Assembly: GCF_013315695.1 (NCBI RefSeq)
Contig: NZ_CP054353.1
Source: Escherichia coli
Lineage (GTDB): Bacteria > Pseudomonadota > Gammaproteobacteria > Enterobacterales > Enterobacteriaceae
Length of the DNA stretch: 64,000 nt
Direction: 5' to 3' (one strand)
Position numbers and translations under genes: made by a program. Position 1 is the first letter of the stretch. Every line of letters starts with the position of its first letter. The notes beneath the pieces were generated by a model. The model had not been told where the DNA came from, did no database searches, and worked only from the letters and a program-made list of their open reading frames with translations. Below are positions 57,801-57,906 of this stretch, piece by piece.

Positions 57801-57906
57801 GGATTTTTAAATCCCGTTTTTGCCTGTTTTGTGCGCACTTCATATATCGCGGCACGTTTTTTGCTCATTTACGGGATTTGTGAATCCCGTTTCTGTCTGT
57901 TTTTTG
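57801..57906. repeat. Two 33-bp direct repeats, each with an internal palindrome, spanning the A stop codon and the parM upstream region
   Basis: ggatttttaaatcccgtttttgcctgttttgtg at 57801 and gggatttgtgaatcccgtttctgtctgttttttg at 57873. Confidence 0.45.

Follow-up and report, generated by a model that had tools for sequence, protein, structure and literature searches.

Here we describe a pair of dyad-bearing repeats that straddles the end of gene A just ahead of a parM-parR gene pair in a P2-like prophage of Escherichia coli. We estimate, with a probability of about 0.78 and on the strength of sequence comparison, that these repeats constitute a bipartite parC, the centromere and operator that would be bound by ParR in a type II, actin-like partition cassette. 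A parC-like partition site was one of several identities offered by the first-pass annotation of this DNA, and it is the one that the comparisons bear out. The dyads co-segregate with parMR, and their core, spacing and distance from parM are kept in loci whose ParM is 62-63 % identical. The stretch analyzed, hereafter the window, comprises 64 kb of E. coli contig NZ_CP054353.1. Our literature search found no study of a P88-type parMRC or its cis site, which is apparently undescribed.

Repeats, genes and signals at the A-parM junction

The repeat search returned a 42-nt direct repeat on the minus strand, with an upstream arm at 57865-57906 (copy 2) and a downstream arm at 57792-57833 (copy 1). 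The two copies are identical at 35 of 42 positions (83 %), are 73 bp apart from start to start and together cover 115 bp. In 300 dinucleotide-preserving shuffles of 57300-58500, the best ungapped 42-nt match had a mean of 24.1 (sd 1.0) and reached 28 at most. The paired 33-bp repeats originally reported are therefore real and form the core of the 42-nt copies. Their coordinates also confirm the placement given at the time, with one copy in the last ~20 codons of A and the other in the 76-bp spacer between A and parM.

Each copy carries a single 20-bp dyad of the form ACGGGATT-N4-AATCCCGT, a pattern that, with up to three mismatches allowed, matches only these two sites in the whole window. The upstream dyad, ACGGGATTTGTGAATCCCGT (57871-57890), reads ACGGGATT-CACA-AATCCCGT on the minus strand, has perfect 8-bp arms and is a putative ParR site. 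The downstream dyad, ACAGGATTTTTAAATCCCGT (57798-57817), has one arm mismatch and is a putative ParR operator over the -35 region; in the window it is the CCTGT variant, the commonest form being ACGGGATT-TCAG-AATCCCGT. The dyads lie 53 bp apart edge to edge, with centers ~118 nt and ~44 nt ahead of the parM ATG. The 73-bp offset amounts to about seven helical turns, which would place both arms on the same face of the helix. Upstream of its dyad, the upstream arm has a 16-nt A-rich lead-in, CAAAAAACAGACAGAA (57891-57906, minus strand), which holds all observed cassette junctions. The inter-arm spacer (57834-57864, minus strand) contains the A stop codon and is variable among relatives.

The label of iterons, also attached to the repeats at first pass, does not suit them: the units are two dyad-symmetric sites and not arrays of short direct repeats. 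CA-AAAAC units seen by eye had raised the idea of R1-like 10-11-bp sub-iterons in each arm, which autocorrelation does not bear out, the self-match being 0.47 at offset 73 versus a background-level 0.28-0.32 at offsets 10-11. The A-tracts are phased at 10.5 bp as in an R1-type parC, weakly and with marginal significance (R 0.64, p about 0.05).

A, parM and parR all lie on the minus strand and follow one another in that order. Gene A (PF05840, E 4.6e-129) spans 57840-60713 as the open reading frame is listed, and 57840-60662 for the 940-aa product as annotated in P88; it ends with a TGA at 57842-57840. parM (56804-57763, ATG at 57763-57761) encodes an actin-like partition ATPase of 319 aa (Pfam StbA_N 1.8e-82, ParM_N 1e-68) that aligns from end to end with crystal structures of R1 ParM (E 1e-92, more exactly 1.3e-92). 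parR, of the stbB family (56488-56799, PF10784 Plasmid_stab_B 2.6e-23), starts 4 nt after parM and encodes a predicted adaptor/DNA-binding protein of 103 aa. This parM-parR pair, of the R1 ParM/StbB family, is intact. In type II systems parC is located immediately upstream of parM (PMC2241845). The locus has the corresponding make-up: an actin-like ATPase with a small ParR directly downstream, and directly upstream a repeated cis site that moves with the genes.

The host element is a P88-like (Xuanwuvirus, Peduoviridae), P2-like prophage, and 57650-58050 is 96-98 % identical to 14 P88-like phage records. The segment from the A 3′ end to the parM 5′ end (57500-58300) is found in 1371 of 5426 complete E. 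coli genomes, O157:H7 strains included, and is chromosomal at 1531 of its 1533 places in them. P88-type A is ~180 aa longer than P2 A (940 versus 761 aa), and its C-terminal 219 aa (57843-58499) match only 14 Xuanwuvirus-like records in the phage collection. Beyond parR come a plus-strand DUF3800 gene (55450-56256) and then the portal and terminase genes. The interval from the portal gene Q to parR (54892-56487) is a cargo hotspot equivalent to the P2 tin/old region; among loci L001, L004, L005, L006, L092 and L094 the slot holds a ClpX-like gene, SSB, HicAB, a KAP NTPase, or an AAA ATPase with an S8 peptidase.

A promoter scan of 57600-58100 found no consensus sigma-70 promoter. The best -10 candidate for parM is an ATTAAT box (57783-57788, minus strand), itself below consensus, which E. 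coli, Plesiomonas and Hafnia share in the form ATTAATCAA. No convincing -35/-10 pair was seen in the inter-arm spacer, which is not conserved in distant relatives. The Shine-Dalgarno sequence of parM reads AAGGAA (57771-57776, minus strand), where R1-type loci have CATAAGGAG. If ATTAAT is the -10 element, the downstream dyad covers about -41 to -21, so that bound ParR would repress parMR.

Conservation of the dyads and their linkage to parMR

Comparison of A 3′ ends and downstream spacers in related phages, a check proposed at first pass, shows that the dyads belong to the partition genes. Across different phage backbones both dyads always accompany parMR and never A alone, and both are absent where P88-type A is followed by other cargo (L005, L006). 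Upstream of the cassette there are three unrelated contexts, each joined to it within 57891-57906: P88-type A, an ORF of L004 and L057, and a 155-aa ORF of L051. In L004, L057 and L051 the cassette stands behind a P2/186-sized A gene and then the small ORF. High identity to the window begins at ~57903-57905 in L004 and L051, just outside the upstream dyad, and L006, which has no par, shares sequence with L082 up to the dyad edge. At the other end, the resemblance to other par-bearing records ends with the parR stop codon. These junctions and this downstream limit together delimit the cassette as 56488-57906.

The upstream arm is also coding DNA, and what it encodes depends on its neighbor. The 155-aa ORF of L051, unrelated to A, reads in frame into the upstream copy and ends at the same stop codon as A of the window, and the two proteins have only their last ~22 residues in common. 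A kinship between the C-terminal region of P88-type A and the small ORFs preceding parM elsewhere was considered and rejected, this tail of ~22 aa, encoded by the putative parC, being all that they share. In the A genes of L006 and of the diverged, par-bearing L082, a TAA stop aligns with window positions 57899-57897, and 19 sense codons of A in the window (57843-57899, minus strand) make up a read-through tail encoded by the cassette. One-nucleotide indels in the A-runs beside the upstream dyad (57897-57906) frameshift the tail in L013, L035 and L081. Frameshifted tails end early or run through the second copy, and A of L082 stops before the dyad. Such tolerance of frameshift and truncation points to a constraint on the DNA rather than on the peptide. 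A-run indels at 57897-57906 were recorded in L013, L016, L035, L048, L081, L082 and L089, L082 having TAA where the window has CAG at 57899-57897.

Variation among 84 E. coli-type loci follows the dyads. Their spacing is 73 bp in 83 of these loci and 72 bp in the remaining one. The GGG-N10-CCC core is intact in 82 at the upstream site and in 62 at the downstream site, where the dyad of the window, like that of about one relative in four, is imperfect (CCC to CCT). The 4 nt at the centers of the dyads are free to vary. As far as sequence can tell, this pattern fits a dyad-symmetric protein-binding site with an uncontacted center. The mean variability of the arms is not below that of the flanking A coding DNA, which counts against the parC reading. 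ParM is 99 % conserved among the 80 best of 203 IMG/VR loci, with a minor-allele fraction of 0.010.

The same arrangement persists in other genera. ParM homologues 54-63 % identical to that of the window occur in P2-like prophages of Plesiomonas, Hafnia, Serratia and Enterobacter, with their genes in the slot between A (or genes after A) and the portal gene. These loci were reached through a protein database and contig look-ups, the IMG/VR scan with ParM having given only 99-100 % relatives; the comparison of upstream regions does not extend to L093 (ParM 81 % identical), whose contig begins within parM. In Plesiomonas (L090) and Hafnia (L091), where ParM is 62-63 % identical, two (C)GGG-N10-CCC(G) dyads lie 72-73 bp apart, and in each ~11-kb locus the pair upstream of parM is the only GGG-N10-CCC pair spaced 70-76 bp. 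Counted from the parM ATG, the sites are at -131/-59 in Plesiomonas, -128/-55 in Hafnia and -125/-52 in the E. coli type. Plesiomonas has a 26-nt direct repeat, GCGGGACAACA(A/C)(A/T)AACCC..., twice, 72 bp apart, with the first copy inside the end of A; Hafnia has tGGGattgaggaaaCCCa and cGGGttcattaaatCCCa, 73 bp apart. The sequence flanking the dyads has diverged in both genera to the point of being unalignable. A five-way alignment leaves few columns invariant; the GGG and CCC triplets at both sites belong to these, as does an ATTAAT.AA box.

The Serratia and Enterobacter P2-like parMR loci (L092, L094) resemble the window in their slot between A and portal and in their homologous ParM (54-59 % identical) and ParR, and the motif GGCAAAAA(C/T)GGGAAC recurs in them and in the downstream arm of E. 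coli. They differ in what lies upstream, which is a long inverted repeat with arms ~26 nt apart and other short repeats instead of the GGG-N10-CCC pair. The elements noted there (L092 4868-4990, L094 3870-3990) are inverted-repeat arms GGGAAC.A.A.AGAAAAAT, a palindrome GCCGTTTAAACGGC and repeats of ATTTCATGACC. The N-terminal strand of ParR is invariant as TRR(I/V)SFYL in the dyad-type group and reads NRKISFYL in the Serratia and Enterobacter relatives. The type of strand thus tracks the architecture of the upstream repeats, a correlation drawn from five lineages.

ParR, the partition reading and its alternatives

The ParR of the window has conserved N-terminal (TRRISFYLKP) and C-terminal (NIRALFPE) segments, both of which align with R1-type ParR. 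Across relatives the N-terminal segment is invariant, the middle is hypervariable and the C-terminus is again conserved, as NI(R/Q)ALFPE. In R1, the N-terminus of ParR binds DNA and its C-terminal peptide binds ParM, and by analogy the conservation pattern seen here matches this division of labor. In an AlphaFold monomer model an extended N-terminus precedes two helices, after which come a disordered linker and a C-terminal helix; at a mean pLDDT of 66, this layout is compatible with a ribbon-helix-helix ParR fold. A Foldseek search of the PDB with this low-confidence model (pLDDT 66) returned only noise, and a search of PDB structures with the ParR sequence returned no match. Among E. coli prophages (P0121-P0203) ParR is 52-95 % identical, with differences mostly in the middle and C-terminal half, while ParM is 99 % identical in the retrieved loci; the diversity of ParR relative to ParM is suggestive of mosaic exchange, or of a linker that evolves rapidly.

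In the mechanism that we infer, each arm would offer one 20-bp dyad with the core CGGG-N10-CCCG, on which ParR dimers would assemble a partition complex through their N-terminal strand (TRRISFYL), putatively of ribbon-helix-helix type. The conserved C-terminal peptide of ParR would capture the ends of ParM filaments, and these filaments would push sister copies of the circular phage DNA apart. With its downstream dyad over the putative parM -35 element, the site would also let ParR repress its own operon, a dual role as centromere and operator that is expected from the example of R1. Translation of the upstream arm would be incidental: it would supply the final ~20 codons of any gene that happens to stand ahead of the cassette, in this case A.

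Against the parC reading stand the imperfect downstream dyad, the want of a consensus sigma-70 promoter and the presence of two dyads in place of the ten direct iterons of R1. The prophages are also integrated, 1531 of 1533 places being chromosomal, and this leaves the need for a centromere unexplained and counts against that reading too. The same figure favors a simpler account, in which the dyads are a transcriptional operator and nothing more, ParR or another cassette-linked regulator represses parMR, and segregation has been lost or the system repurposed. The overlap of the downstream dyad with the putative -35 element would suit such an operator, as would the presence of just two sites, compared with ten iterons in R1. 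ParM is nevertheless intact and 99 % conserved in the 80 best of the 203 IMG/VR loci, the ParM-binding C-terminal peptide of ParR is retained, and an upstream dyad ~118 nt before the ATG, held at a fixed seven turns, is something that simple repression needs in neither respect; we consider the operator-only account improbable. Transcription on the opposite strand offers another role. Read on the plus strand, both units have the form of a hairpin with a T-rich run behind it, and the pair could be tandem intrinsic terminators of antisense transcription that shield A from late Q-P operon or cargo transcripts. A scan indeed flags 57871-57890 as terminator-like, with an RNA fold of -10.2 kcal/mol (z -2.3). 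However, no gene on the plus strand terminates close by and nothing in the vicinity is transcribed toward copy 2; in the window, the lowest-energy fold of copy 1 on the plus strand is not the hairpin (z -0.4); and common arm variants break pairs without compensation. Plesiomonas and Hafnia retain position and spacing with arms of only 3-4 bp around a 10-nt center (-4.6 and -5.2 kcal/mol, z -0.2), so that the hairpin is lost while the dyad cores persist. On these grounds we give intrinsic terminators a very slim chance.

Two further readings, both raised in the first-pass annotation, take the repeats out of the partition system altogether. One is a non-functional recombination scar, left when the 3′ end of A was duplicated during cargo exchange downstream of A. 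The region is a hotspot of such exchange, and cassette junctions cluster in the 16 nt beside the upstream copy; this part of the proposal stands. The duplication itself does not, as the spacer copy is no relic of the A end: A and the L051 ORF read into an upstream arm that belongs to the cassette. P88-type A with other cargo has neither copy, unrelated genes have both beside them, spacing is constant in 83 of 84 loci despite indels in nearby A-runs, and dyad cores with their 72-73-bp spacing survive where the flanks are unalignable. A scar is accordingly a highly improbable explanation. Even harder to credit is an origin-associated role, in which the repeats belong to the replication origin or bind the rolling-circle initiator gpA. 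HUH-type initiators often use inverted repeats, and by record annotation the P2 origin lies inside A. Its nick, however, is 427 nt before the A stop (NC_001895 position 29892, record annotation), and the P2 nick region aligns not to the repeats but to a homologous, strongly conserved sequence in this A at ~58611-58648, ~750 bp away. Moreover, the dyads occur beside 186/P2-sized A genes without the P88-type C-terminus (L004, L051) and are missing from the P88-type, par-less A genes of L005 and L006. The aligned sequence itself (58611-58648, minus strand, inside A) reads GCGGCCCTGCCGCCCCTTGGACTCGTGGCAATAACTGT versus GCGGCATCGCCGCGCCTCGGAGTCCTGTCAATAACTGT in P2, far above the 31 % identity of the A proteins, and by this resemblance it is probably the replication origin of the phage. 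A literature search on the P2 origin found nothing more specific than the GenBank feature.

Known partition systems and the phage carrier

Centromere architecture varies widely among type II systems, and the partition site proposed here has its own form. The parC of plasmid R1, which spans 159 bp, has a 39-bp promoter segment with a set of five 11-bp direct iterons on either side (PMC2241845). R1 ParMRC and the window have in common the ParM/StbA and ParR/StbB families, the placement of the site immediately ahead of parM, a sense strand that is rich in A and closes with CATAAGGA right before the ATG, and a bipartite layout with two arms split by unrelated sequence. The offset between arms is close to an integral number of helical turns in both, 73 bp here and 94 bp, or about nine turns, in R1 (arithmetic from PMC2241845). 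They differ in that R1 has ten 11-bp iterons whereas the window has two 42-nt arms with one dyad each; the ParR of the window is just 24 % identical to R1-type ParR, its carrier is an integrating phage, and its upstream arm lies inside coding sequence.

The ParM of IncL/M plasmids (pOXA-48-like) is among the closest plasmid relatives found, at ~52 % protein identity and 66 % DNA identity over part of the gene. These plasmids share the order parC-parM-parR and have repeats flanking the promoter upstream of parM. Unlike in the window, the repeats are T-rich units of ~10 nt, GTATTTTTCT on the sense strand, without GGG-N10-CCC dyads, and the ParR strand reads NRKCSFYIYP. For the Staphylococcus plasmid pSK41, Schumacher and colleagues reportedly described in 2007 a centromere made of 20-bp units, with two ribbon-helix-helix ParR dimers proposed to sit on each. 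The pSK41 units are contiguous tandem repeats, whereas the dyads of the window are 53 bp apart edge to edge, and no sequence relatedness is detectable between the proteins of the two systems. By its proteins and the position of its site, the locus is a member of the R1 ParM/ParR family, with an architecture unlike that of R1 and of the closest plasmid relatives examined. If the partition reading holds, a ParR of the R1 family can work with two dyads instead of ten iterons.

The cassette is thus a familiar kind of element, an actin-type partition system, in an unusual carrier, a very common P2-like prophage of E. coli. Its cis site now offers an exact 115-bp target for testing actin-driven segregation in an integrating P2-like phage. 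That integrating prophages of several Enterobacterales genera keep an intact ParMRC in the same slot, with what would be a minimal two-dyad centromere, may reflect an important episomal phase, or else an exclusion device, a proposal that we regard as speculative and, on balance, unlikely. Such a phase could be a plasmid-like carrier state before integration or after excision, or one in which ParM actively positions replicating phage DNA. Alternatively, the cassette could work through incompatibility, or as an exclusion device, to keep out related phages. A 34,461-bp circular E. coli record deposited as a plasmid (L097, NZ_CP148288.1) turns out to be an entire P88-like phage genome that includes integrase, cox, A, parMR and structural genes; this record may hint at an episomal form and could equally be excised phage DNA. 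As the putative upstream ParR site falls within the 3′ end of A, its occupancy by ParR could, in addition, link assembly of the partition complex to A expression.

The exact junction zone of cargo exchange downstream of A is now marked as well. An annotation oddity finds its explanation in the same place: the last ~20 codons of the annotated "replication endonuclease" and stray "DNA replication protein" pseudogene fragments would both be translated parC DNA. One such fragment, a 69-nt RefSeq pseudogene in L004 (5341-5409), corresponds to the upstream arm of the putative parC and owes its match to the tail of the P88-type A protein.
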